A stretch of DNA of 64,000 nt, taken from the sequence record NC_070980.1. One strand, given 5' to 3'. The translations under genes were made by a program, and so were the position numbers. The notes under the pieces are model-generated. The model was not told where the DNA came from and searched no databases. It saw nothing but the letters and a program-made list of their open reading frames with translations. Origin of the DNA: Escherichia phage vB_EcoP_SU7. Positions 2,870-63,499 of the stretch are shown here, piece by piece (position 1 is the first letter of the stretch; each line of letters begins with the position of its first letter).

Positions 2870-3673
2870 TTGGCTATCGAAACAACTGCGGTAGTTACTA
2901 CCGATTTAAACCCCCTATACCCACGGGACAGGGATTATCTTTATGAAGGGGCTGCCCAGATACGACTGGTCAAACAAGTATTAATTAACACCTTTCCTAA
3001 CATCACAGAGCCAGTTCAACTTGACTCAGATTCTTTCAACATCTTAGCAAACAAGGTTTCCTTTACTGGAGATTCTATGGATGTTGGAGGTTTGATGATC
3101 AAAAACTTAACTCCGGGAACTGGTGATAAAGATGCTGTAACCAAAGGTCAGATGGAAGCTTTCATGTTAAACTGGATGCAGAATAAACTCTATCGTATTG
3201 GGGCTTACTATATCACTGAAGAAGATATCAACCCCGGAGATTCTAGCTCTCTTGGTTTTGGTTCTTGGGCTAAAGTAACTGGTGTTGTTATGGGTACTGG
3301 TGTTGTTAACCCTGATGGCTCTGTTCCTAATGCTCAGCGTGTAGAGTTCCAAGCAGGTGGTACTGGTGGTCGTGTATTTAACACAATTCGTGCTGACAAC
3401 ATGCCTCTGACTACAATCAATGGTTCTAGTTTTCAAGTTAGTTCTTATTCTCACTCACATAATATCACAATGGGTCGTGGAGATGCTAGTGGTCACAACA
3501 GCAGTCCTAATTGGTATAGTCCGGGTGGTGGTTATACTCAGGTAACTGACACTAACACCCACTCTCACTCAATTACAGGTTCTGTTAGTTTTGGACGTGA
3601 TGATGTATCAAGACAACCTATTAACACTTTGCCGCCTTTCAGAGCAGCGCATATCTGGAGACGTATTAGCTAA
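2870..3673 (+). CDS. virion structural protein, tail-fibre-like
   Basis: TTG start 7 nt after GGAGG; Gly/Thr/Ser-rich with SHSHNIT and THSHSIT repeats. Confidence 0.5.
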   Translation: MAIETTAVVTTDLNPLYPRDRDYLYEGAAQIRLVKQVLINTFPNITEPVQLDSDSFNILANKVSFTGDSMDVGGLMIKNLTPGTGDKDAVTKGQMEAFMLNWMQNKLYRIGAYYITEEDINPGDSSSLGFGSWAKVTGVVMGTGVVNPDGSVPNAQRVEFQAGGTGGRVFNTIRADNMPLTTINGSSFQVSSYSHSHNITMGRGDASGHNSSPNWYSPGGGYTQVTDTNTHSHSITGSVSFGRDDVSRQPINTLPPFRAAHIWRRIS

Positions 3674-3682
3674 GGAGGAATT

Positions 3683-6600
3683 ATGGCGCTTTATCCAATA
3701 AAATCTTTAGGGGCTGTAGGGGTTATTGCTGACCAAGCTCCGACTGATTTAGCACCTAATGCTTTCACTAATGCTATCAATGCCCGCTTTGTAGAGCAAA
3801 GAGTTTTTAAGACGGGGGGCAATGCCCCTCTTTCTTATGTAGAAGAAGATAAAGAGATTACACCACTTTCTTTTATATCAATGCCTTTTGACTACTACAG
3901 TGCAGGTAATAGCTTTCTGATTGTTGGTACAGACAAAAAGCTATACAAGCTAACAGATGAAAGTTTGACAGATATTAGCCGAAAGGTTGCTACTGTCACA
4001 AAAAGAGCTTCCGCTTCTATTAAGATATATCCAGTTGTTTCTCAGATTGTTCCTAAAGAAACTTCTATTTCAATGAATTTCAATCAAACTAAAACCTTGG
4101 AAGTTTCTATTCTTCCTGAAGATGCTAACAACACAGCTTTAGTTTGGGAGGTTAGTAATTCTTCTTATGGTAAAGTAGAAGCTGACACCGAGAACCCTAA
4201 AACTGCAACCTTGACGTCTTATGAAAAAGAAGGGAATTTAGTAGTTACTGTATCAACAGCTGATAAATCTATTAGTGCTCAGATTGCAGTAAACATCATA
4301 GACGGTGATTCTGGTATCTTCTTAAGTCAGGATACAATAACTGTCCGCAAAGGTGGTAACACAACGCTAACTGCTGTTACTGGAAAAACTCCTGTAACTT
4401 GGGTCTCTAGTAATGCTTCTGTTGTGTCTGTAACACCTAATGCTAATACACTGACAGCTACTTTGTCTGCTAATGGTGAGGGTACTGTAACAATAACTGC
4501 TGATAACGGAACTAAGAGTGCTTCTTGTCAAATTACTGTTATATCTCAGATAGACAGTATCACTCTGAGTCAGACAAGCGTTCAAATGAGCAGGGGTACT
4601 CAGTATGTTTTAACTGCTACGGTTAATCCTTCAGATGCTCCCAATAAAAACATAACTTGGACTTCCTCTAATCCTGCCATTGCCACAGTTTCTGGAAATA
4701 GTACAGAAGCGGTAATAACAGGGTTACTAGCTGGGTTTACTGAAATCACAGCTGTTACTCAAGAGGGTGATAGATCAGCAACCTGTACAGTGAGAGTTGA
4801 TTTAGCTGGGAGAATGATGCGAACTTCTGCAATGTCTTTATCAGAACCTGTTGTAGATTCTATACAAGAAGAAGAAACCAATAATACTCCTATCGAATCA
4901 GAAGAGGTTTTATATTTTGTTAATGAGCCATCTGGAGTTGATACCTCAGGGATGTATGAAGGTAACAACTTCTATGATTACTCAAACGTCAATGATATGG
5001 AAGGTTTTGCACGAGCTGCACTTATGTCCAGCGATACTCCGTTGCAATCTTTATCACTAGATATCATCGATGCCTCTCTTGATGTTGGGGAAGATATTGT
5101 AATTACAGCCAATGCTTTGCCTGAGGGAGAGTATTTCTATCAGTGGACAGTGGACAAAGCAGGATATGTTTCAACCACATCTACTACCGGGAAATCTCTA
5201 AAACTGACAGCTATTCGTAAAGGTGAGATCAAAGTTACTTGTACTGCTAGTCAAATGACTCAGAAAGATTATGATGCTTTTGACGACTATCCTTGGTATC
5301 ACACCATAATCTCTAACTGTGCAGTGGCTACCACTCACTATGAAACACCACAGGTCAAAGAATTTGAATCTGAGTATTTCGTAGATCTTCCGGGATGGGG
5401 TGAGCAAACAGTCGTTGATAATGATGGCAACCCTTCTGTTAAGAAATTTAACTGGAAGTGTGAGCGTATTCGTGCATTCAACAACAGACTTTTTGCTCTG
5501 AATATGAGGGAATCTAATGCATCTGGTGTAACTACTCACTACCCTCTAAGACTTCGGTGGTCGAATTTCGCTAACGAAAACAAAGCTCCATCTCTTTGGG
5601 ATGATTATGCTTATGATCGTTTAACAACTTCAGACCTATCAGCAAACATTGTTGGTCAAACTGAGGCTTTGGAAAATGGGTACGCTGGGTATATAGATTT
5701 AGCAGATTCTAACGGAAGCTTGATTGATGTACTTCCTCTGAAAGATTACCTTTTTGTTTACACGGAGTTCGAAACCTACATTGGTTCTCCAACCAATAAC
5801 ACATATCAGCCTCTTATGTTTAAGAAGCTGTTTAATGACTCTGGCATACTTGCTCCTGAGTGTGCAGTTGAAGTCGAAGGTGGACACTTCGTAGTAACTC
5901 AAAATGATGTGATCTTACACAATGGTGCATCTAAAAAATCTATAGCATCTAACCGAGTCAAGAATCTTCTCATTAATGAGATCTGTCTAGTAAACCCTCT
6001 AGCTACTAGAGTTCACCTACACCAAGACAAGAAAGAGGTTTGGGTTTTATATGTAGGTCCGGGAGAGCCTAAAGAGAGTTTTGCTTGTAATAAAGCCGCT
6101 GTTTGGAATTATGAGTTTGACACTTGGTCTTTCCGTACAATACCATATGCTCAGTGTATTGGGTTAGTCGATCCACCAGTTCTTGAGAGAGGTCCAATCT
6201 GGGCAGATTTTCAAGAGATCACTTGGGATGATCCCTCTATTAACCAATTAGTCTGGAGAAAGGATGCTAATAATTTCCGTCAAAGGATTACAATAGTTGG
6301 CTCTTTCCTGAAGGGATTCTATCAAGTGGATGTTGGTGCTCTGGACTACATCTATGACAGAACCAATGATAGGATTATAGAAAAACCTTTAGAAATGAGG
6401 CTAGAAAGAACTGGTATTGATTTTGATAGTGTCACTAACGAGTGGAATCAAAAACATATTAATAGATTTAGACCTCAAGTCACTGGTACGGGTACTTATA
6501 CTTTTGAAGTCGGTGGAAGTCAATTCTCAAACGAGTATGGACACAATCACTCAACTAAAGAGTTTAGGGTAGGCTCAGATCGTCATGTATCCGTGAGACT

Positions 6601-23027: not shown

Positions 23028-23083
23028 ATTAATATTTCCTTATATAAATTTAAGATTGTTGCTCTCTTTGAGCGGTTTGTATA

Positions 23084-30562: not shown

Positions 30563-30795
30563 TATATACTTCGTTACAAATGGTACCTTACAGGTTTCAC
30601 ATTCCTTGTGGTATGTTGCTATTTTGACCCCCTACTCAGTGTAAACAAAACCTTCTTTATCGGCTGACTCTTTTGCAAAAGTTTTTGCATCTTCAAGAGT
30701 GTCAAAAGTCTCAGTGATATAAACTTCTCGAGGCCCGTTTTTGTATACTACAGAAAACTTACCACCCTTAAGTTCTATTGGTTTCACAACAGTAC

Positions 30796-45301: not shown

Positions 45302-46402
45302 TTACAGCAGTCGTTCTAATTGCATTTCCAGATGGTCTGGAATGTAATCAGTGATGTTATTATCACTGCTACCTGATTCACGCATCAGAGCAAACATGTG
45401 ACGAATTTCACGAACCGTTGCGATTCGAGTGCTTTCAATCTGAGGGGTGTAGTAGGTCATGATCTCTTCATAGACAGTGTTGGCATTACCGCGCACATAT
45501 CCCAAGAAACCATAGAAGTCATTCATATCACGTAAGTTGATAAGGACTTCACCATCAGGGCCAGTCTGTTGCACACGAACACGACCAACCAAAGTTACAG
45601 ATTGCTCACGACAGAACAGAATATCACGAGCAAGACGATACCCTTCAGTGAGATCACTGTCTCTTGGAGTATAGTCTAGGGGTAGATGTTGAATCATAGG
45701 AGCGAAGCGCAGCTCATTCAACTTCTCAACATAAGCTTCATTGTCTAAATCTGCATATTCAACAGCCAGTTTCTTGAGAACCAAGAAGCGGTTGACCAGA
45801 TTCAGAAGTTGGCTCTTTTTCCACTTCGGCTCTGAGATACGGAACTCAACAGAACCAAATTGAGATAGAGGCAAAAGATTAAGGGAGGTATATTTATCCC
45901 AGCTATTAACAAGAGAGTGGAAGAAAGCTTCCCCGTCTCGGTTGAACGCTGACGAAGCATTCATAACTTGTGCTTGAACGACAGCAAAAGCTGGACAGAA
46001 GTTGCTACGATAGCGATGGTATCCAGAACATTTGAACATCATCTTTTCATAGAACGTCCATCCAAGAATAACTTTCTTAAGGATATTACTATCAGCGTCA
46101 CGCATATCCATATGAACGTGAGTGGAACAGCGCCAAGTTCCCTCGGCTCCAGAATCCTGTACTGCTTCACTCAGATTGTTAATAGCACGAAGTAATTCTT
46201 CACCGTTGTAAGGTCGTGCACATACTAATTCACAACCATCACGAAGAGAGCCATCTTCAGTACAAACCCACATATCAGCGTCAATGTTAGTTGTACCTTC
46301 GACTTCTAACTCAATACCAACACCACACTGAAAAGCAATACTTGGATGCGGTTCAGATAAGCGAGGGTTACGGTATCCAAAAACTTGTGCTACGGTTGTC
46401 AT
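45302..46402 (-). CDS. glutamine-synthetase-like amidoligase (putative carboxylate-amine ligase)
   Basis: GIELEVEG and STHVHMD metal-binding-type motifs; sits next to GATase II-like and AIG2-like genes. Confidence 0.4.
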   Translation of the reverse strand: MTTVAQVFGYRNPRLSEPHPSIAFQCGVGIELEVEGTTNIDADMWVCTEDGSLRDGCELVCARPYNGEELLRAINNLSEAVQDSGAEGTWRCSTHVHMDMRDADSNILKKVILGWTFYEKMMFKCSGYHRYRSNFCPAFAVVQAQVMNASSAFNRDGEAFFHSLVNSWDKYTSLNLLPLSQFGSVEFRISEPKWKKSQLLNLVNRFLVLKKLAVEYADLDNEAYVEKLNELRFAPMIQHLPLDYTPRDSDLTEGYRLARDILFCREQSVTLVGRVRVQQTGPDGEVLINLRDMNDFYGFLGYVRGNANTVYEEIMTYYTPQIESTRIATVREIRHMFALMRESGSSDNNITDYIPDHLEMQLERLL

Positions 46403-47025
46403 AATGATTCCACCAACTCTACATTATATGATGACAGGTCTGAAGAAATATGCTTGAACTTCTCCAGAAGGTTTAAAGATTGACGACCATTGTCGCCATA
46501 ACCAGCTTCAAGAAGCACGTTTCCAACGTAAGCTCCTTTGTAATAAACTTTTCCATCGACAGGATTGATATAGATGAAACGAGTAACCAACCCTTCAAAC
46601 TCTGGATTAAACAGGTTGTACACCAAATCACCCGGAATCGAACGTCCGAGAGAAGGTGGAGTACCACGAAGTTTATTCCCCATCAATCCTTTAGCTCGCT
46701 GACGAACAGGGTTGATATGGGTCCAGCTCACCATGTTATTACCATGCTGAAGGTATCCTACATCTGGAGACTCCAGAATGAGGCTGTGATCAAACACTGG
46801 GATATTACTAACAATCTGACGCTCAAACTGACCTTCGGAGTTTTTAGTCCAGCGTTCCGCCTCAAACACTAAAGACATTTCAGCGTCGTGTGAGTAGTCG
46901 TCGATATCAAAGTTACCTTGCTGACGAACATCAAGCACATATAGAGGGAGGTTTTTACCATCAGGTGATCGCTGAGCAATCCATGTTCCACAATAATAGT
47001 GTTGAAAATCTCTTAACAAGCTCAC
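46399..47025 (-). CDS. hypothetical protein (cluster member)
   Basis: 208-aa ORF, stop-start overlap with the amidoligase. Confidence 0.5.
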   Translation of the reverse strand: MSLLRDFQHYYCGTWIAQRSPDGKNLPLYVLDVRQQGNFDIDDYSHDAEMSLVFEAERWTKNSEGQFERQIVSNIPVFDHSLILESPDVGYLQHGNNMVSWTHINPVRQRAKGLMGNKLRGTPPSLGRSIPGDLVYNLFNPEFEGLVTRFIYINPVDGKVYYKGAYVGNVLLEAGYGDNGRQSLNLLEKFKHISSDLSSYNVELVESL

Positions 47026-47034
47026 AATATCACC

Positions 47035-47844
47035 TTATACAATCTGGAGTTTAGAGGAGAATTTATCCGCTTCTTTAACATCGTTACTGTTGATGATGTT
47101 GTGAAGCTTTTCAATTGGAAGGCGAGAGTGAAGTGACATCAATACTTCCATATCACAGCCTTGAACAACCTTATCAACTTGCTCATAAACAAACTTGCGG
47201 GTTGACTTCTCGCCAATCCAGAAGTTAGAAAGAGAACGATATTCAATACCGTAATCTTTGTAGCGAATGGCAGAAGCCTTTCCGTATAACTCTTTACGAC
47301 GAGTATCTTTATCCATGATCACAGCTGGCAAGGACAGGAAGTAATCACACAACACACCTAACATCATTTGAGTCTGACGACTAATTTCCAGCGTACCAGT
47401 GACGCCAAGGTGAACATGACCACCAGCAGTACGCAGACCTTTGTCTGTCGCTACTGGAGATGGGTTTTTCTGACCAGTGAAGGCGTTGAAATCAGGAGTA
47501 CAACCAAATACAAAGGCTGACGGATGGAAAGATTCCATCTCTTCTGAAGTGAACACATGAGAGCTAATCCCAAGTGCTGCCTCCATGCCACGTTCATTGA
47601 GAACTTTGTTAGTCAGATCAATACCACGCTGAATGTTATCATTAAACGCTTCAAACCCTTTCTGTGGGTTAATATCGAACTCGGCCAGAACGTTGTCTTC
47701 TTGAAGACGAACATCAGGGGCCAGATCAATTTTGTTGTCTTTAGAGCAGCCCAGCTTACCAGCCACAGAGGTGATAATACCAGAAGCAGTACGAACAAAC
47801 ATTTCCGGATCCGACCCTATTAAGAATTTACGTTTAGTAGTCAT
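47035..47844 (-). CDS. hypothetical protein, possibly a second carboxylate-amine ligase-like enzyme
   Basis: IGSDPEMFV and GGHVHLG motifs; assignment weak. Confidence 0.3.
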   Translation of the reverse strand: MTTKRKFLIGSDPEMFVRTASGIITSVAGKLGCSKDNKIDLAPDVRLQEDNVLAEFDINPQKGFEAFNDNIQRGIDLTNKVLNERGMEAALGISSHVFTSEEMESFHPSAFVFGCTPDFNAFTGQKNPSPVATDKGLRTAGGHVHLGVTGTLEISRQTQMMLGVLCDYFLSLPAVIMDKDTRRKELYGKASAIRYKDYGIEYRSLSNFWIGEKSTRKFVYEQVDKVVQGCDMEVLMSLHSRLPIEKLHNIINSNDVKEADKFSSKLQIV

Positions 47845-48311
47845 GCTTTAGTCCAACCTTTATGAGATAGATAGTTTTTAAATCTGCCACTGTGCACAGC
47901 GCCCATGTGGCCTTGATGTAAGTCGTTGCTTCTACAGAAGTCTTTAAGATTGTATATTGTTACAACCTCGCCATCTGGAGATCTAAACTTCCAAAATCTA
48001 GCATTCCCTTTCACAGCGTTTTCTTCACTGGTCAGAAGTTGGAAATTACTTGGGTGGTTATTAAGTTTATCGCCATCGATGTGATCAACAGTCATACCAT
48101 CCGGAATAGGCCCAATAAACAATTCATACATAAGTCTATGTAATAAAAAGTTCCTTGTTATCTTTTCAGGAGCCTGAACTGTTGTAAACTTAAGATAACC
48201 ATCTTTATCAGGAAACAGTTTCCTCTGTTTCCCTGTTCTTGCATGGAATATACTACCGTCTTCGAACACCAAGAAGGTAGCAACTCCGACTACTAACTCC
48301 CTAAATTCCAT
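47841..48311 (-). CDS. HNH homing endonuclease
   Basis: VDHIDGDKLNNHPSNFQLLTSEENAVKG. Confidence 0.6.
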   Translation of the reverse strand: MEFRELVVGVATFLVFEDGSIFHARTGKQRKLFPDKDGYLKFTTVQAPEKITRNFLLHRLMYELFIGPIPDGMTVDHIDGDKLNNHPSNFQLLTSEENAVKGNARFWKFRSPDGEVVTIYNLKDFCRSNDLHQGHMGAVHSGRFKNYLSHKGWTKA

Positions 48312-48335
48312 AGAGAACCAATAAGGAAAGCACGC

Positions 48336-49286
48336 TTAGTCATTGTAATACTCCACGAGTTCATCAAAAAGGGAAACAACACGAGCACCAGCTTCTTCTG
48401 GTGTCATTGAGGAAGGTACTGCTTGCATCAGACGTTCGATAAAACTTCGAACAGTAATTCTGTCCATACGCTGATCTAATACTTCTCGCTTGTGACCTGC
48501 ACAAGTTGACCAGAGACGTAACCACTCACTCATACTCTCATAATGGTCAGGGTCTTGGTCACGACGACGTGCCATACGACGGAGAACTCCATCATTATGG
48601 TTTCGTACATAACCATCTCGGTTGTCATCAACACCGAATACATTCTGAACCCATACGTTTTCAGAAAATTCATCAGTGGTGCAAATTAATGGCAGAAATG
48701 CAATTGCACTCATGTCGCCATCAAAATAAGTCGCTGCTGACTCATCGGTTGAGTCTACGTCATTACTATAACACCAGCGACCAAAGAAGTTACGACTTAA
48801 ACCAGCTAAGCGTAGAGCTAAACCGATTCGTTGTCGCTTAAGCAACTCTTCCTTGTCTTGTACGCCTTCCTGAAGGAACTCCATTCCATTAAAATCACCA
48901 TCCAAATAGCTACGGATGGTCATTAGTCCAGTAAACACCTTGTCTGCTGGATGGTTTCGAAGGTTCACGGCAATGGAGTTCACCGAAGTGACAGAGAACA
49001 TATCTTTATAGCAAGACATTGAGTTAAAAATATCTGTTGCTTCAACTAAAGCTCTTTCGATATCTTTAGCTGGCACGCCATAAAAATTGTGAGGCCAGAA
49101 GTTAATAACTTCAATTTCTGAAGTTCTATCACGAAGGCTTGTTCGGTTACGACTTTCACCGTTAATGTCTGTAACAGAATACATGTGCATACAGTTAAAA
49201 GTACCAAAGCAAGCTCTTCCTTTGAACACTGACTCACCGAAATCCTCTGCCGGTGTTACCGGAGCAATCGATGCGGAGATTGACAT
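48336..49286 (-). CDS. hypothetical protein (cluster member)
   Basis: 316-aa ORF, no motif recognised. Confidence 0.5.
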   Translation of the reverse strand: MSISASIAPVTPAEDFGESVFKGRACFGTFNCMHMYSVTDINGESRNRTSLRDRTSEIEVINFWPHNFYGVPAKDIERALVEATDIFNSMSCYKDMFSVTSVNSIAVNLRNHPADKVFTGLMTIRSYLDGDFNGMEFLQEGVQDKEELLKRQRIGLALRLAGLSRNFFGRWCYSNDVDSTDESAATYFDGDMSAIAFLPLICTTDEFSENVWVQNVFGVDDNRDGYVRNHNDGVLRRMARRRDQDPDHYESMSEWLRLWSTCAGHKREVLDQRMDRITVRSFIERLMQAVPSSMTPEEAGARVVSLFDELVEYYND

Positions 49287-49294
49287 ATTCGCCT

Positions 49295-50512
49295 CTATTT
49301 ATTAAAGAATAGTTTTTCCATAATGGTTTCCCACTCTTCTGAGGGGAGGGTTGAGAACCCGTTTCCGTGAAGCCTGTTTGTCATGCAACTAATAATATTG
49401 TACATGTTGTAGCTTCGGGTGGATTCTGTTCCATTGTTCCAGTTGTAACCGAAAACAATTTTATCGAAGGAGGTTTTATCCGTAGTTACTTCTCGGATAA
49501 ACTCAACCAAGAGCGATTTCTCTGTGATGACCGCACGTTCACCATCTGGCAGATTGCAATACTGAGGAAGAAGGATTGGTAAGAACATCGAATTGTTCAC
49601 TCGACAATCACGAACACCTTCACTGCGATAGATTAGGCTTGAGAAGTCTTCATCACGCAGGTGTCCTTCACCTTCAGTGTATTCACACTGTCGCCACTTG
49701 GTCTGGCGAGGCTCAATCATTGTACTACCAACGCCTACTGTATACAGAGACGCTTGGAAAATACATGAATCGTAATCATTCCCTGTTAAAGCAACACGTT
49801 CGTTACCGAACACATCCACTGAAGAGTTGATCAGTCGGCTGAATGCAAGAGAGGCTAGTGGAGACCAACCTTTCTTATACATCTTGTTCAGCATTTCATA
49901 CACAGCAGATTTTTCATCATCTGTATAGAATGTACGATTCAGCATCAGATAGAACAGAGCGCGATCAGCAGGACAACCATCAGTACAAACACCCATGAAT
50001 CCTACTTCATGCCATACCAGACATGAGTCAGAATCTTTATCCATGAATGCTTCAAAGGCTTCCATTACAGCCCTGTCAGTAACATCAGGACGGTTGTTTT
50101 CTTCTGCCCATGTTTCTACATGAGAAGGGGGACGAGGGTCTCCATTCTCCACCCCTTCGCGGAAATATTGAGTGGTAATAGGCTTTTTATCACCATAACG
50201 TTTTACACCATAAGCGGGAAGGTGTGTACCAGAGTTCCAGATGTACTTGATTTCGGACATAGGCATCATGTTTTCGAGAACATTCTCTTCAGCAGTGCCT
50301 TGACGAACCATCATACCCTCACTCCACACCTTAATACGGATATTCCAGCCAAAATTGCTGTCATATGCGTTGTAGTAGTCAGGATAACCATCTTCATCTT
50401 CATCATAATCACCACCCTGATAGTAACCTGCTTTCAGGAAACCATAACAAGGAGGCCAGACGGTTACAACATCATCTGATTCTTTCCAGCTTTGAAGTGT
50501 TACAGGGAACAT
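49295..50512 (-). CDS. hypothetical protein (cluster member)
   Basis: 405-aa ORF, acidic Tyr-rich N-terminus, no motif recognised. Confidence 0.5.
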   Translation of the reverse strand: MFPVTLQSWKESDDVVTVWPPCYGFLKAGYYQGGDYDEDEDGYPDYYNAYDSNFGWNIRIKVWSEGMMVRQGTAEENVLENMMPMSEIKYIWNSGTHLPAYGVKRYGDKKPITTQYFREGVENGDPRPPSHVETWAEENNRPDVTDRAVMEAFEAFMDKDSDSCLVWHEVGFMGVCTDGCPADRALFYLMLNRTFYTDDEKSAVYEMLNKMYKKGWSPLASLAFSRLINSSVDVFGNERVALTGNDYDSCIFQASLYTVGVGSTMIEPRQTKWRQCEYTEGEGHLRDEDFSSLIYRSEGVRDCRVNNSMFLPILLPQYCNLPDGERAVITEKSLLVEFIREVTTDKTSFDKIVFGYNWNNGTESTRSYNMYNIISCMTNRLHGNGFSTLPSEEWETIMEKLFFNK

Positions 50513-50886: not shown

Positions 50887-51253
50887 AACTTCTCCTGTTT
50901 ATCACATTGATTGGTCAGCCAGTTGTAAGCCCCTCTGTTGTTCTTGCTTAACTCACAAGATGCAAAAGAATAGGTTCTGACAAACCCTACGGTGGCTAAG
51001 CAAATAAAGATTGCTGCCAATAAGAACTTAACTTTCAACTTATTATCCATACAACCTCTTCTTTGAACTTAAAAAAGGACTCTCCTAAGAGAGCCAAGCT
51101 TTAAGGCCAATTAAATAGATATCACCCAATATCTGTGGATAACCTGCTCTTAAAATATTCTATCCGACGGATGTTCGAGGATTACTCCTCTCCCTAGCAT
51201 CGGCCCCATACGGGTAAGATTAAATTAAGATTAGGTTAGTTGAGCCAGAATAG

Positions 51254-51287
51254 CTCACATAGCCCTCTGATACTCACAAGGGCTATA
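51254..51287 (-). repeat. conserved hairpin element (copy 1) just 3' of a paralog gene
   Basis: CTCAC-ATAGCCCT-12 nt-AGGGCTAT; 8-bp stem 51259-51266 / 51279-51286; no U-run. Confidence 0.5.
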
Positions 51288-51291
51288 GATG

Positions 51292-51540
51292 TTACTCTGT
51301 GGCTCCGTCGAAGCGGAGGATTGCTGCTGGGGCAGGGTATACTTCCAGATCTTCATCCAGTCGGTACAGGTGCCCTGTGCTTAAATTTACAGCTGTTACT
51401 GGCTTAGAGTGACCTCCAGCCTGTATGGAAGGGACTCTGATAAAGAACTCTTCCGGATATTCAACAGCGTGGAACACACTCCCTGAATAGAGATTCTTTA
51501 TTTTGGAAGTTTGTTTAGGAGTTTTATCGGCAATTTGCAT
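51292..51540 (-). CDS. small protein, multi-copy early paralog family
   Basis: Shares …LS.G.VF……H..V.L..G.L..L.ED.EV.P.P with 52661-52924, 52928-53182, 55147-55398, 56112-56342. Confidence 0.5.
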   Translation of the reverse strand: MQIADKTPKQTSKIKNLYSGSVFHAVEYPEEFFIRVPSIQAGGHSKPVTAVNLSTGHLYRLDEDLEVYPAPAAILRFDGATE

Positions 51541-51800: not shown

Positions 51801-52229
51801 TTAAACAACAAATTGGAACGCTTCGTATCCAAACTTGTAAGAGAAGTCATGCTTGAATTTCACTACACGACCACAATCACGGAAAGATTTCAAACGGCTA
51901 CTGAACCCAGCCATCGGCTCAGGGTCGATAGGGCTACGAATCTTCATAGCTACAGAGTGCAGCTTGAAGCGTTTACCAGTGCTACAGGCCATCATCACAT
52001 ACTCCATACGAGTAGTCCAGATGTTGAGCACCATGCTTGTTTTCTCCGCTGACCAACCAGTCTTGCGGGCGATTTCCTTGTGGACATTAAGCTCCAAAGG
52101 AAGAGGGAATTGCTTGTTGAATGAAGCCGGATATAGCTTGACCAGAAGATCAATGTTTTCTTTATACGTGAGGTAAGCCAATTTCTTGCTTACGTTGGGG
52201 AATTTCCCAGCCATTTTTTGAAGCTCCAA
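51801..52229 (-). CDS. ProQ/FinO-domain-like RNA-binding protein
   Basis: …LYPASFNKQFPLPLELNVHKEIARKTGWSAEKTSMVLNIWTTR… resembles the ProQ N-terminal domain. Confidence 0.4.
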   Translation of the reverse strand: MELQKMAGKFPNVSKKLAYLTYKENIDLLVKLYPASFNKQFPLPLELNVHKEIARKTGWSAEKTSMVLNIWTTRMEYVMMACSTGKRFKLHSVAMKIRSPIDPEPMAGFSSRLKSFRDCGRVVKFKHDFSYKFGYEAFQFVV

Positions 52230-52413
52230 AACAGCGCCGAAAAGAGAGGCGTCATAGTAGTTAAAAGGAGGAGAGAAGAGAGCTTATTTACTTGCCTTTT
52301 TCTGTCCGTTAATGTACCAGATAACTGAGCCGTCAGGCTGTCGTTGACCGAAACCTTTCAGGTTAACCATTTCTTCTTCAGAGTAGGCACGTTTTCTCAC
52401 TGATTTTCTCCTG

Positions 52414-52671
52414 TCAATAGAAGGTGTGTGTAGAGTCGTCGTTCATAGATAACCAAACGAAGAAGACAATCACACAGAAAGCAATAACACCGAGAATTGC
52501 AAGGATTATAGTGTTAGCTAATGTGATATCTAACACGCTTTGCAGATACATAAAGAACTGTACGACACCACATATCATTAGCACAACCCCAATAATAATA
52601 AGGAGCCAGTACGTGCAGAGAAGGGCTGCATCCAATAGCGATACATACTTTGGATGGTCTTTATGTTTCAC
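52414..52671 (-). CDS. small polytopic membrane protein
   Basis: 85 aa with 2-3 hydrophobic helices. Confidence 0.45.
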   Translation of the reverse strand: MKHKDHPKYVSLLDAALLCTYWLLIIIGVVLMICGVVQFFMYLQSVLDITLANTIILAILGVIAFCVIVFFVWLSMNDDSTHTFY

Positions 52672-52924
52672 TGATCTTCTCCACTAAATCCAGAGTTGCT
52701 GATTCAAACACAATACCAACTGGCATATTGGATGCCATATTACGAACGTATCCACTCTGCATAGACACAGCTCGGTGGTATTCACAACCATTAGAGCTTT
52801 TGTTCACTTTCATGTAAATGGTTTGTTCTTTATCTTCTTTCAAAGTAAAGAAAGAACCGATAGAAACACCTGCCACCATTAGAGGAATATCCGCAATACG
52901 AGTTTTGTTAATGGTCAGAGCCAT
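52661..52924 (-). CDS. small protein, early paralog family
   Basis: Family pattern as for 51292-51540. Confidence 0.45.
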   Translation of the reverse strand: MALTINKTRIADIPLMVAGVSIGSFFTLKEDKEQTIYMKVNKSSNGCEYHRAVSMQSGYVRNMASNMPVGIVFESATLDLVEKISET

Positions 52925-52927
52925 TGC

Positions 52928-53182
52928 TTACTCCTTAATAGTTGCTTCAGCTTTAATAGGAATAACAGCAACATCTTTACGAGGAGCTGTCGCTCGGCCT
53001 GTGTTAAGACAGGCTACAAGTCTATGCTCATCCGCACCCTTAATGCAGAGTCGAGTTGAGAACTCTGTAGATAGTAAGATGTACAAATCACCATCTTCAC
53101 TGTTAGGGTACATGAAGCAATCCCCAAGACGCAGAGCGCTGAGTGGTATTGCGTTCTTACTGGCTGGTTTGTTGACTTTCAT
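52928..53182 (-). CDS. small protein, early paralog family
   Basis: LSALRLGDCF…HRLVACLNTG…DVAVIPI. Confidence 0.45.
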   Translation of the reverse strand: MKVNKPASKNAIPLSALRLGDCFMYPNSEDGDLYILLSTEFSTRLCIKGADEHRLVACLNTGRATAPRKDVAVIPIKAEATIKE

Positions 53183-53458
53183 TTTACCACCTTTAGTTAT
53201 GGACCAATTTATGAGAGAACTCTCGGAAGAATGCTTTCATAAATAGGGGGAGGGGACGAATCCTCCCATATCCTATTAATTAATGTTGCATGTAAGACCT
53301 AACAATCCGATGCTGTAGTGGATAGCGTAAAACGCTTACCGGCATTAAACCCAGCCCATGAGGGGCTTATGTGAATAAAATGCTCAACATTGAGCGGTTA
53401 GTTGATAGGAGATCTGAAGTCCTATCTCAAAGGACTCTCGTAAGAATCCTTCACGATA

Positions 53459-53725
53459 TTACTTAGTAACAAAGATTGTCACCTTATCCATTACCCAACC
53501 TATCAACATAAGTAAAGGTAAGAAGAGGATAAAGATCAGCATAAAAGGCCAGAAGAATATCACCGTCCAAATAGAGTATTCATCAGGCTTACCACTCCAT
53601 GAGGAATGGAAGAAGTTGTAGAGTGTATTGGTTTTGAAGCACCATTTAACTACAATGGCTGCCAACCACCAACCAATAACATAAATCAGGAGGACATACG
53701 CTGCTGTAACCATTGACCGTTCCAT
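53459..53725 (-). CDS. small polytopic membrane protein
   Basis: 88 aa with 3 hydrophobic helices. Confidence 0.45.
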   Translation of the reverse strand: MERSMVTAAYVLLIYVIGWWLAAIVVKWCFKTNTLYNFFHSSWSGKPDEYSIWTVIFFWPFMLIFILFLPLLMLIGWVMDKVTIFVTK

Positions 53726-56065: not shown

Positions 56066-56099
56066 CTCACATAGCCCTCTGATAAACACAAGGGCTATA
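56066..56099 (-). repeat. conserved hairpin element (copy 2) just 3' of a paralog gene
   Basis: CTCAC-ATAGCCCT-12 nt-AGGGCTAT, near-identical to 51254-51287. Confidence 0.5.
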
Positions 56100-57392: not shown

Positions 57393-57443
57393 AAGTAGCT
57401 GTGCTGTCGTTATCAGAACTTACTACCCCCTGTTTTACGGGCA

Positions 57444-57471
57444 TAAAAAAGCCCCATCCGAAGACGGGGCG
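57444..57471 (-). terminator. rho-independent terminator (minus strand)
   Basis: GCCCC-ATCCGAAGAC-GGGGC hairpin with U-run on the minus transcript. Confidence 0.5.
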
Positions 57472-57706
57472 ACCTGAAAAGTGAACATGACCTCACTCAT
57501 TTAAAAATCCTCGCAAAGACTCTTAAAAAGCGGCCTCGTTAAAGGCCCGGTCAAATGACCATCCAATAGGGATTGAACCATGCCAATGATTCACAAAGGG
57601 AGTTCCCTTTAGGCATCACTAGCTACGCAAAAAGCCGCACAGAGGCGGCAGACAAAAGACGCTCAAGAAGAGCGTCATAGTAGTTGACCACTGGTACAGA
57701 AGGGGC

Positions 57707-58150
57707 TTACTTAACTCTTGCTGTTTTGATTGGGTCAATATATTTTTCAACTCCCCACTTATGTTTACTGTCAGCGTAGAAAACATCAGGTGCACATTGA
57801 CTAGTAGTAGGAAATGCTTTCGGTGGCTTAGTGCTACCTTTATTCTTCTGCTTACCTTTAGTGCGACCGTTACAAAAGATTTCTAAACGTTTTTCTTGTT
57901 CTGTTTTCGCCGCCCCGTTGGTTAACAAGGAACGCTTGTGATCAGCAAGAAGAAGCGCATCAGCACGATGAACACGACGACCTAGCACCTTTGGTACAGG
58001 TGATTCTTTATGTGCTTGAGCGGCCTGTTTCATAGCTCTTCGTTTAAGGCTACGTTTGCTAATATGACTAACAGCGGCTGGCTTTTCTTTTTCCAGCTCA
58101 CTCATAGAGAACACTCGTCCGCCTTTCATGCTGATTTTAGATTTAGCCAT
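57707..58150 (-). CDS. basic hypothetical protein
   Basis: 147 aa, Lys/Arg-rich. Confidence 0.45.
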   Translation of the reverse strand: MAKSKISMKGGRVFSMSELEKEKPAAVSHISKRSLKRRAMKQAAQAHKESPVPKVLGRRVHRADALLLADHKRSLLTNGAAKTEQEKRLEIFCNGRTKGKQKNKGSTKPPKAFPTTSQCAPDVFYADSKHKWGVEKYIDPIKTARVK

Positions 58151-59893: not shown

Positions 59894-60703
59894 CTTTCAA
59901 TTGTAAGGGCGCTATTGCCCCGCTCTCTATGAGCTTTTTAAGTCACTATTAACTTAACTATAAACGCTCACTACTAAACGCTTATAGGTAAGTGGGGCGG
60001 TCTTATCAGGAGTTAACCTTGCCGCCCCCTTATCCGTGATGTTTCATCTGGTATCTTTAATTAGTCGCTATAAACGAAGCCGACCTGATAGCGATGATCA
60101 ATCATCACAATAAGGCAGTGCGTCCGACACTATTTAATTACTTTATCGTAACCGTCGGCAATATCGTCTACTTTGCTTTCGCTCCCGCCTATCCTTTTGT
60201 ACTAACTCTCAATCGCTAACCATCGCCCACTACGGGAGGTTATTGCGAAAGAGTCATTAGCCGTCTAATACATTGACGTTTTATATCTTTCAGCAGGTTT
60301 ACTACATAAACTGATTATGTACGCCATCAATAGTGGCCTCAAATCATTCACATCGTAAACGTTCACACTAAACCTTATTGTTAAATAGCAATTTGCCACT
60401 TTTTAACCACTCCCCGCCGCTCGCAATTGAGCGTTAATTCTTCGGACTTGTCTACCCTGATTAACTTCTTTCACTGTAGCGCCTTGTTAGCGATGACCGC
60501 CGCTACCCTTAACCGTGGGCGATTAGCTTAAGTCTTTGCGTGCACTCAATGAATCCGTCTATCAGTGGTGACGTTTCCAGTAAGGGATTGTAAGATTGTT
60601 TTCTCTGATAGTTTAGAGAATCTCACACCGTTTTATCTGGTATGCTTTCCGATGGTTATTATCATCAAGCATATTCAACCGATATAGGAGAATGTTTAAA
60701 TTA

Positions 60704-61489
60704 TTAAAGAGCGGTAAATCTATCAGTGTGCTTTCTCACACTATGCAACTGTTAGCCGTTGTTACGCTTTTCTTAAGCGGTGATTTGCTTAAGTGATGTG
60801 CTCATTATGAATCATGCTGTTTTAGCTGTCAACCACTTTTTTAAATCTTTTCTCATCTATTCTTTCGAATGACTAGTTAATCACGCATTGGATTAACAAG
60901 ATTGTAAGCGGTTGCGCTTAACTTTCTGATTCATATTTTTAAAGAGCGGTGTTTCTTACTGCTTAGTGAACATTCTAACAGAACGTTTCACCTTGTCAAC
61001 TCTTTTTATCGTCTTCTTTTTATTCTCTTCCCTTATCTCGCGTGAATCTTTGCGAAAGGGCAAGACGATAAATTGTTAAAGAGCGGGGCACTAAGTGCCG
61101 GATGTTTTATGTCATCACTGACCGTGTGAACATCTTATCATAATGATTCGATGTGTCAACAACTATTTTTCGATTAATGCATCTTGATAAACTAGCGACC
61201 GTTAAGGCCGCTAACCTTACCTTAGTTCATACGTTTAAAGGTTAAATCTTTATCCGTACTTACCAGCGATAACACCGCAATAGCTTTGCCTTTATCGGCA
61301 TCGGCTACCATCTCTTTTGCCTGCTGTAATGTACTACCGACTATTCTCATAATCATGTTAGTAACGTTAATGCTAGTGCAAGTGATTTGCGTGTCTTTGC
61401 TTGAGAAGGTATACACGTTCATTGATAAATCCTCATTATGGCATGGTTGGGAGTTTATCAAGATACACTAATCGAATTATTAAAGAGCA
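60704..61489. repeat. array of four TTAAAGAGC(G/A)(G/A) motifs, each followed by a short hairpin
   Basis: TTAAAGAGCGG at 60704, 60949 and 61076; TTAAAGAGCAA at 61479; each preceded by AT-rich sequence; lies within and just past an ORF-free region. Confidence 0.5.
61222..61461 (-). CDS. small hypothetical protein
   Basis: 79-aa ORF. Confidence 0.35.
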   Translation of the reverse strand: MINSQPCHNEDLSMNVYTFSSKDTQITCTSINVTNMIMRIVGSTLQQAKEMVADADKGKAIAVLSLVSTDKDLTFKRMN

Positions 61490-61782
61490 AGGCTAAACAT
61501 CTAGCCTATCAGGAGGTAACTTACTGCATCACGTCCTGACAAGATTCAATATACACTATCCTAAAACCGTTGCAAGCCTTTTTCTAAAAATAATTTCACT
61601 TTCTTTTGTGTACAGAGGAACGCGCACACGAATAACATCAAGGGAGGAAGAAAACAAGCCTTATAATCGAAAATAAGGCATACAGGAGGTGTTCTAACGA
61701 GCTAAACAAGGGCAAGATGTGCAATCACCTTAGAAATGAAAAAAGCGCCTCAAAAGGGCGCTTAGAAAGTCTTACGGATTGG

Positions 61783-63222: not shown

Positions 63223-63499
63223 TATTACTACTCCTGATAAATGAAAGATTGTTTGTCGTGTGTGGTTACTTAGGCTGATCAACCTTCACTACTCACTATC
63301 ACCGCTAACTACTTTACATCACTGCTTCATTAACGATAATTCAAACTACGATTGCAACTATATATTAAAGGAAAAACTTGTCAACCACTTATTTTCAAAC
63401 TGTTTAGATTTCTAATCACAACTCATTGAATCTAAAAGAAATTTAATTTACTAAACTTTCTTGTTCAGAGATATAGCTTACTACTTAATAACACTTATA

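Follow-up and report, generated by a model that had tools for sequence, protein, structure and literature searches.

A divergent, single-domain ProQ/FinO-family protein encoded by Escherichia phage vB_EcoP_SU7

Introduction

Among the small-RNA chaperones of Gram-negative bacteria the ProQ/FinO proteins make up the third major class and, to our knowledge, studies of them have been confined to chromosomal and plasmid systems. How such a domain grips its RNA is illustrated by the RocC-RNA structure, in which Tyr87 and Arg97 form a pocket for the 3′-terminal nucleotide and a Ser-capped helix contacts three consecutive phosphates of the hairpin, and the substitution R75D in RocC costs more than 100-fold in affinity (PMC9674577). 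For ProQ, the substitutions K35E/N/I, G37V, K54A, R58A, D82Y and G85D each abolish RNA interaction (PMC7192607), and ProQ binding is reported to protect RNA 3′ ends (PMC12086684).

What of phages? Their FinO-like proteins receive mention in the review of the family (PMC9977716), as does one such gene in the KASIA genome paper (PMC8541194). GenBank annotations of phage members include ‘RNA chaperone ProQ’, ‘sRNA-binding protein’ and ‘ProQ/FINO family protein’, the proteins of phiEa21-4-like Erwinia phages being named ‘ProQ RNA chaperone’ and that of Aeromonas LAh ‘putative RNA chaperone ProQ’. In the literature we found no functional study of any FinO-domain protein from a lytic phage. The phage dealt with here, vB_EcoP_SU7, is a C3-morphotype podophage of the Gordonclarkvirinae, and its genome paper makes no mention of a ProQ/FinO gene. 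[quoted passage not shown] The window referred to below is the whole stretch of 64,000 nucleotides of the SU7 sequence record (NC_070980.1) that was analysed, and all positions are positions in it.

The gene and its start codon

The open reading frame at issue lies on the minus strand at 51801..52229 and, if read from its TTG, gives 142 amino acids. That is how a first-pass annotation delimited it; the frame is real, though its 5′ end was set some 15 nt too far out. An in-frame ATG at 52212–52214 (minus) has a Shine-Dalgarno GGAG (52224..52227, minus) 9 nt upstream, and all relatives are annotated with the resulting 137-residue product (Bas87_0089, ECBP2_0092, MLP3 and IME267 gp089). For these two reasons translation likely starts at the ATG (52214) and not at the TTG at 52229; the latter (52229–52227) overlaps the GGAG and lacks a separate ribosome-binding site. 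The coding sequence is then 51801..52214 (minus), with its TAA stop at 51801–51803, and the protein of 15.9 kDa has a pI of 9.86, with 23 Lys and Arg residues against 11 Asp and Glu. It is identical to vB_EcoP_SU7 gp092 (QWY14189.1, YP_010672885.1, UniRef100_A0A8F3C9D8), which NCBI names ‘hypothetical protein’ and UniProt, under the UniRef entry A0A8F3C9D8, ‘ProQ/FinO domain-containing protein’. The domain call treated below is thus both correct and already public at the level of annotation, and as a sequence finding it is ordinary.

Seven genomes were compared for selection. With dS of 0.14–0.33 and dN of 0.009–0.030, dN/dS is 0.04–0.15, and residues 6–101 are invariant save for V/I44, the remaining amino-acid variation being confined to residues 2, 5 and 102–125. 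The gene is real and, on account of these values and of the near-invariance of that stretch, its minus-strand frame is under strong purifying selection; the plus-strand frames that overlap it are mechanical. The sole substitution unique to vB_EcoP_SU7 among the seven is Cys114 (51873–51875, minus), where the other six have Arg or Lys.

Membership of the ProQ/FinO family

Taken as a single sequence, the protein matches the Pfam ProQ family (PF04352) over residues 18–87 with E of 1.1e-5 and 25.8 bits, which is 1.2 bits short of the curated cutoff of 27 bits; a PF04352.19 match is also precomputed for a cluster representative 97% identical to it. One further Pfam match, to DUF7343, is short, lies inside the FinO region and is well under threshold (17.4 bits against a cutoff of 27.6). 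Word-indexed homolog searches recovered only 1 and 10 proteins, and an exhaustive phmmer search of representative proteins recovered 43 relatives. An alignment of 38 members was made into a family profile, and when this was run against the PDB its best match was the N-terminal domain of ProQ (5nb9, E = 2.8e-14), followed by RocC (7rgu, 7rgt and 7rgs, E about 3–5e-12), FinO (1dvo, 6e-10), the Legionella ProQ homolog (6s10, 7.5e-9) and NMB1681 (3mw6, 2.6e-6). Every solved FinO-domain structure is matched within that range, from 2.8e-14 to 2.6e-6, and no non-FinO PDB chain was matched up to E = 1. In the other direction all 38 alignment members match Pfam ProQ, and the relatives tested pass the curated PF04352 cutoff with 33–66 bits.

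The modelled structure tells the same story. AF2 gives a confident fold (pLDDT 91.5, pTM 0.86) whose top 26 Foldseek matches in the PDB are all FinO-domain structures, with the next match at E > 1. A search of the viral structure library BFVD brings up, at the top, phage proteins that bear the name ProQ/FinO; they come from SU7 itself, from Salmonella 7-11 and an Aeromonas phage, and from phages of Sinorhizobium and Rhizobium. Since profile, fold and conserved-residue evidence agree, the SU7 protein is almost certainly, on alignment and model together, a ProQ/FinO family member, the resemblance going far beyond chance.

The first-pass annotation, which relied on alignment by eye with ProQ sequence, had tentatively called the protein ‘ProQ/FinO-domain-like’ and had suggested a profile search and structure prediction as ways of checking. 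Both bear it out, the first by way of the PF04352 match just under the cutoff and the far stronger match of the clade profile, the second by way of the FinO fold of the AF2 model and the FinO-only Foldseek matches, and the diagnostic Tyr, Arg and Ser residues considered below are kept. Where the call fell short was in extent. It had placed the resemblance in the N-terminal half, and the fold match spans residues ~10–110 of the 137 (51885..52187, minus). The elements of this domain are helices at residues 10–27, 44–52, 56–66 and 70–79, a beta-hairpin (81–83/93–95) and a helix at 98–110. Beyond the canonical domain the high-confidence model has an extra C-terminal helix, residues 114–128 (51831..51875, minus), which is part of an FxxxFxxxFG..F tail of the phage clade and is common to many phage homologs. 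The 137-residue protein has no Pfam match to the ProQ C-terminal domain and is modelled as one compact domain; in architecture it is, on that model, a minimal, single-domain ProQ with neither linker nor Tudor-like C-terminal domain.

An intact pocket in an altered surface

Which of the residues that matter in ProQ and RocC are present? The segment corresponding to the pocket for the 3′-terminal nucleotide, as placed by the alignment of 38 homologs, is at 51969..52001 (minus). Within it Tyr72 (51999–52001, minus), the counterpart of ProQ Y70 and RocC Y87, and Arg82 (51969–51971, minus), the counterpart of ProQ R80 and RocC R97, are both kept and are invariant in all 38 aligned homologs. The helix N-cap is also kept as Ser55 (52050..52052, minus; ProQ S53, RocC S70), a column with Ser or Thr in 27 of 36 phage-clade members. 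R107 stands where ProQ has Q102 and RocC K119, a position at which Gln or Arg is usual. Across the 38 sequences L24, P29, F32, L40, W66, R69, Y72 and R82 are invariant, and the phage clade has an invariant W-x-x-R-x-E-Y motif of its own which resembles the F-T-R-R-L-D-Y of RocC.

Around this kept core much is different. Six positions critical in ProQ are substituted non-conservatively: K35 (RocC K50) by E41, G37 (RocC G52) by N43, K54 (RocC K71) by A56, R58 (RocC R75) by S60, D82 by K84 and G85 by S87, and all six substitutions are fixed in the seven genomes compared. The first two fall in a divergent beta-turn, E41-L42-N43 (52086..52094, minus), where the family has K-I-G (ProQ K35-I36-G37). 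The Gly of that turn is near-universal in the family and present in 33 of 36 other phage-clade members. Asn is able to take up Gly-like turn geometry, and N43 may be tolerated there. At S60 the basic residue that follows the N-cap, Arg in ~80% of the family, is missing. That position varies across the phage clade (Ser in 11, Arg in 5, Gly in 4, Asn in 4), and what the clade usually keeps is the Gly (33/36), the Asp (23/36) and the hairpin Gly (30/36). The closest relatives, at 43–48% identity, keep all three and are without a 3-residue insertion that the SU7 protein has in its beta-hairpin. By this alignment the SU7-type protein is a divergent member of its phage clade, which accounts for its sub-threshold Pfam score.

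With the six ProQ-critical positions changed, and among them the equivalent of RocC R75, the canonical mode of binding may be altered or weakened. How far might such a change go? It is conceivable that the FinO fold has been repurposed, such that terminator 3′ ends are not recognised in the manner of ProQ and RocC, and that some other RNA shape, DNA or a host protein is bound instead. We regard this as unlikely, and equally so the more particular version of it in which the protein would inhibit a host factor for RNA decay or RNA chaperoning. What speaks for such repurposing is that E41, N43, A56, S60, K84 and S87 occupy ProQ-critical positions, two of them reproducing the loss-of-function changes K35E and K54A, that the 3-residue beta-hairpin insertion, N43 and the KLHS changes are unique to the SU7 lineage while the closest relatives retain the Gly and a D/N-G turn, and that the extra C-terminal helix packs, in the model, on the domain. 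It is countered by the invariance of the N-cap Ser and of the pocket Tyr and Arg, which are the most diagnostic residues, and by the strongly basic character of the protein, in which the new basic residues R69, K81, K84, K91 and R93 cluster in sequence near the pocket residues and the beta-hairpin. Moreover, the R58-equivalent is variable clade-wide and yet other members clearly pass the ProQ thresholds.

Genomic context and time of expression

The gene is within a tightly packed leftward run of small genes, between homologs of phiEco32 genes 93 and 94, and strong sigma-70-like promoters lie upstream at about 60.8, 61.0, 61.2 and 63.4 kb. Upstream of it in the early cluster there is no exact match to TAATGTATA, the middle/late (gp36-type) motif of phiEco32. 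The nearest one-mismatch site on the strand of the gene is at 53485–53493, and counts of TAATGTATA sites are at chance overall, 22 against 18 expected. A middle or late promoter belonging to the gene was therefore rejected. The sigma-70-like promoters, together with the lack of an exact gp36-type motif upstream in the early cluster, make early expression likely, to judge from position. The earlier placement of the gene ‘among early genes’ stands as to the leftward cluster and its promoters; as to timing it is plausible from position only.

The neighbours do not help to assign a function, as they belong to PHROG families of unknown function or have no PHROG match. Three of the proteins that flank the gene, of 82, 87 and 84 residues (51292–51540, 52661–52924 and 52928–53182, all minus), match the overlapping PHROGs 7431, 7832 and 12612 and form a paralogous family of the early cluster. 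Downstream, at 45302–50512 (minus), is a conserved block encoding an amidoligase, a COOH-NH2 ligase and associated proteins, homologs of phiEco32 genes 84–88, which resembles a peptide-modification module. Among the 629 six-frame open reading frames of the 64,000-nt window there is no second FinO-like gene.

An accessory cassette

Of roughly 100 related records only ~20, all of the Suseptimavirus clade, carry the gene, and these are the same ones that reach 90% or better in their match to the window; the closest records compared are E20-1 and EK010, at 97%, and the carriers ECBP2 and IME267 are classified in Suseptimavirus. About 80 related phages, phiEco32 included, do without it, and the gene is accessory for that reason. 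In those phages (phiEco32, Paul and the rest) the genes on either side, homologs of phi32_93 and phi32_94, are conserved at 82–85% DNA identity, and a spacer of 59–106 bp takes the place of the 460 bp that hold the gene. In these genome alignments the gene is an accessory cassette with clean boundaries.

Directly upstream of the gene is the intergenic 14-mer AACTACTATGACGC (52249..52262, minus), with a second exact copy at 57672–57685 (minus) where 0.0005 copies would be expected by chance. Each copy is ~22–25 nt past a stop codon and is followed by a weak GACGC hairpin and then a U-run. The 14-mer occurs at the same two intergenic sites in phiEco32 (23061–23071 and 30583–30593 of our locus L003), one copy having a single mismatch, and the element is also at the matching spot in phage Paul. 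The motif is, on this comparison, a marker of the insertion point of the cassette and has no specificity for the gene; it is likely to be a conserved element of the early operon with a putative role in termination or processing.

Candidate RNA partners

Are there RNAs of the kind that a FinO domain could bind? Terminator-like hairpins number 28 in the early region against a shuffled expectation of 10.4 +/- 3.2, a 2.7-fold excess, and 26 against 13.8 (1.9-fold) and 23 against 13.3 (1.7-fold) in the late/middle regions. As FinO domains bind hairpins of this type, there are candidate ligands.

A more specific connection, to the large non-coding region and hairpin elements of the window, had been drawn in the first-pass annotation, and nothing specific was found in it. 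phiEco32, which does not carry the gene, has about 1.2 kb of that region (59.9–61.07 kb, to 61071) at 80% identity and several of the repeated hairpin modules as well; with most of the region present in a phage without the gene, the link is not specific and was dropped. The region as a whole (59900–61780, ~1.9 kb) has no open reading frame of 100 or more residues, the longest being 79, and contains strong sigma-70-like promoters on the minus strand at 60832, 60999, 61159 and 61575. It also contains the repeats TTAAAGAGCGG and TGTCAACNAC, each in three copies with the third copy of TGTCAACNAC outside it at 63379, and has terminator-like hairpins nearby. Elsewhere two intergenic copies of a 34-nt hairpin repeat (minus strand TATAGCCCTTGTG...AGGGCTATG) lie at 51254–51287 and 56066–56099 and are 94% identical; the repeat also occurs in phiEco32 (67988–68021 of its record), and there are further short repeated terminator modules at 51074–51090 and 53429–53445.

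Another ORF-free stretch, 314 nt at 57393–57706 (minus), has four tandem terminator-like hairpins (57676, 57649, 57547 and 57470), that at 57470 being a textbook GC stem with T6, and is a possible locus for a small RNA or 3′UTR-derived RNA. Its portion 57493–57707 is without a match in phiEco32, and the only genomes to have it in full are the 20 of the Suseptimavirus clade that also carry the gene. As a pointer to a partner RNA this co-occurrence was set aside, being confounded by common descent.

Nearer the gene, a simple scan detected no cis-encoded antisense promoter-terminator unit around it. A plus-strand hairpin with a T-run at 52194–52211 was considered as an antisense partner and rejected, there being no plus-strand promoter upstream of it; it has the appearance of a remnant of an intergenic hairpin seen in phage Paul. 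Nor is a structured leader or a terminator of its own apparent, the 111 nt upstream folding no better than shuffles (z = 0.88).

What might the protein do?

We infer RNA binding by the SU7 protein from the family to which it belongs and the pocket that it keeps. In the account that we favour with moderate confidence, an early-made FinO-fold protein would bind RNAs that end in a hairpin and 3′ tail, with a specificity unlike that of host ProQ. Made early in infection, as its position suggests, it would take hold of the base of a stem-loop together with the 3′ single-stranded tail, that is of the ends left by intrinsic terminators, on phage early RNAs, host RNAs or both. Binding there could shield 3′ ends against exonucleases or polyadenylation, or could assist RNA pairing. 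That specificity would differ from that of host ProQ is suggested by the replacement of basic residues flanking the N-cap and by a beta-hairpin which is remodelled and more basic.

Might there be a wider significance? A bolder proposal, which we put forward only tentatively and think improbable as matters stand, is that lytic phages have a FinO clade with a rewired RNA face that acts as a host-takeover or counter-defence factor. The rewiring on which it depends would be that the 3′-end pocket is kept and the basic flank of the N-cap lost, here with a remodelled, basic beta-hairpin in addition. Such a factor could protect the terminator 3′ ends of phage early transcripts after host transcription has been shut off, or it could capture host RNAs that depend on ProQ, antitoxin RNAs included. 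If this proposal were true, a virus would for the first time be seen to use the ProQ/FinO RNA-chaperone system.

Quite unlikely, in our view, is the narrower idea that the protein serves as a host-directed RNA decoy, competing with host ProQ for host small RNAs and 3′UTRs. It might in that way disrupt host post-transcriptional control, or stabilise labile antisense or antitoxin RNAs after shut-off and so avoid RNA-based abortive infection, each of these modes being as improbable as the idea itself. A ProQ fold and 3′-end pocket shared with the host protein would suit a decoy, as would the inhibition of host sigma-70 transcription by gp79 in phages of the subfamily (PMC12276001), the failure of the antisense scan and of upstream-leader folding to find a phage-encoded partner RNA, and the accessory, clade-specific character of the gene, in which it is like many host-takeover and counter-defence genes. 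The idea is, however, purely inferential, and a protein that simply mimicked host ProQ would not be expected to have so divergent a binding surface. As for a decaying or functionless passenger frame, or a chance resemblance, a Pfam score slightly under the gathering threshold and the absence of the gene from most related phages might hint at one, but the likelihood is minimal, as the reading is effectively refuted by the selection data (dN/dS 0.04–0.15 at dS up to 0.33, with an invariant core), a proper ribosome-binding site standing alongside, and by the fold data, with a confident model, specific fold matches and a profile E of 2.8e-14.

Its compactness, its high conservation and its natural mutations at positions of the ProQ RNA surface make the SU7 copy a possible entry to phage RNA biology, in the sense of which 3′ ends a phage protects, and a possible natural experiment on the specificity of FinO domains.

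Comparison with known ProQ/FinO systems

Full-length enterobacterial ProQ has a FinO N-terminal domain, a linker and a Tudor-like C-terminal domain, in contrast to the single domain of the SU7 protein. Its N-terminal domain, in the E. coli structure (5nb9), is the best profile match, with S53, Y70 and R80 corresponding to S55, Y72 and R82 of the SU7 protein. Legionella RocC, known in complex with the RocR terminator (7rgu), has one dedicated small-RNA partner and a long C-terminal region, and its R75, K71 and G52 are not conserved in the SU7 protein. Plasmid FinO (1dvo) and FopA work with cis-encoded antisense pairs, FinP/traJ and Inc/repZ (PMC9977716), none of which kind is detectable beside the SU7 gene. 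The chromosomal NMB1681 of Neisseria meningitidis (3mw6), a global RNA binder, has a structure-based identity to the SU7 protein of ~19%; neither the turn Gly nor the Arg that follows the N-cap is found in the SU7 protein, which has a C-terminal helix in addition.

Was the gene then picked up from a host? With structure-based identity of 13–19%, and with its nearest relatives in other lytic phages, it is, by these comparisons, not a recent copy of host proQ. The nearest relatives include 7-11-like phages, Felix-O1-like Erwinia phages and two metagenomic contigs. The FinO-like proteins of other lytic phages (Salmonella 7-11 G0X555, phiEa21-4-like Erwinia phages, Aeromonas LAh and Shewanella KASIA p031) are of the same phage clade, at 26–48% identity, and share the W-x-x-R-x-E-Y motif, many of the homologs in other phages sharing also the C-terminal FxxxF..G tail. 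They differ from the SU7 protein in scoring above the Pfam cutoff and in retaining the turn Gly and a D/N-L-x-G hairpin.

Some phage FinO-like proteins are longer, 227–250 residues, having an extra ~100-residue C-terminal domain (that at 2983–3687 of locus L004, and our proteins P0012, P0014, P0018, P0027 and P0030) with the motif GN-HP..G...T..V....F.ET.NSVY..G, which has no Pfam match and is not the ProQ C-terminal domain. In four phage lineages, those of Salmonella 7-11 (L004), Erwinia Pistou (L005) and two metagenomic contigs (L006 and L007), the FinO-like gene adjoins genes for PRPP synthetase and nicotinamide/nicotinate phosphoribosyltransferase (NAMPT, NAD salvage), in two gene orders. 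This neighbourhood is absent at the SU7 gene, in Aeromonas LAh_8 and in Shewanella KASIA, and it was for that reason ruled out as a guide to the function of the SU7 copy. Where, overall, does the closest likeness lie? It depends on what is compared: in architecture it is to the minimal ProQ NMB1681, in sequence profile to the N-terminal domain of ProQ, and in structure to RocC.
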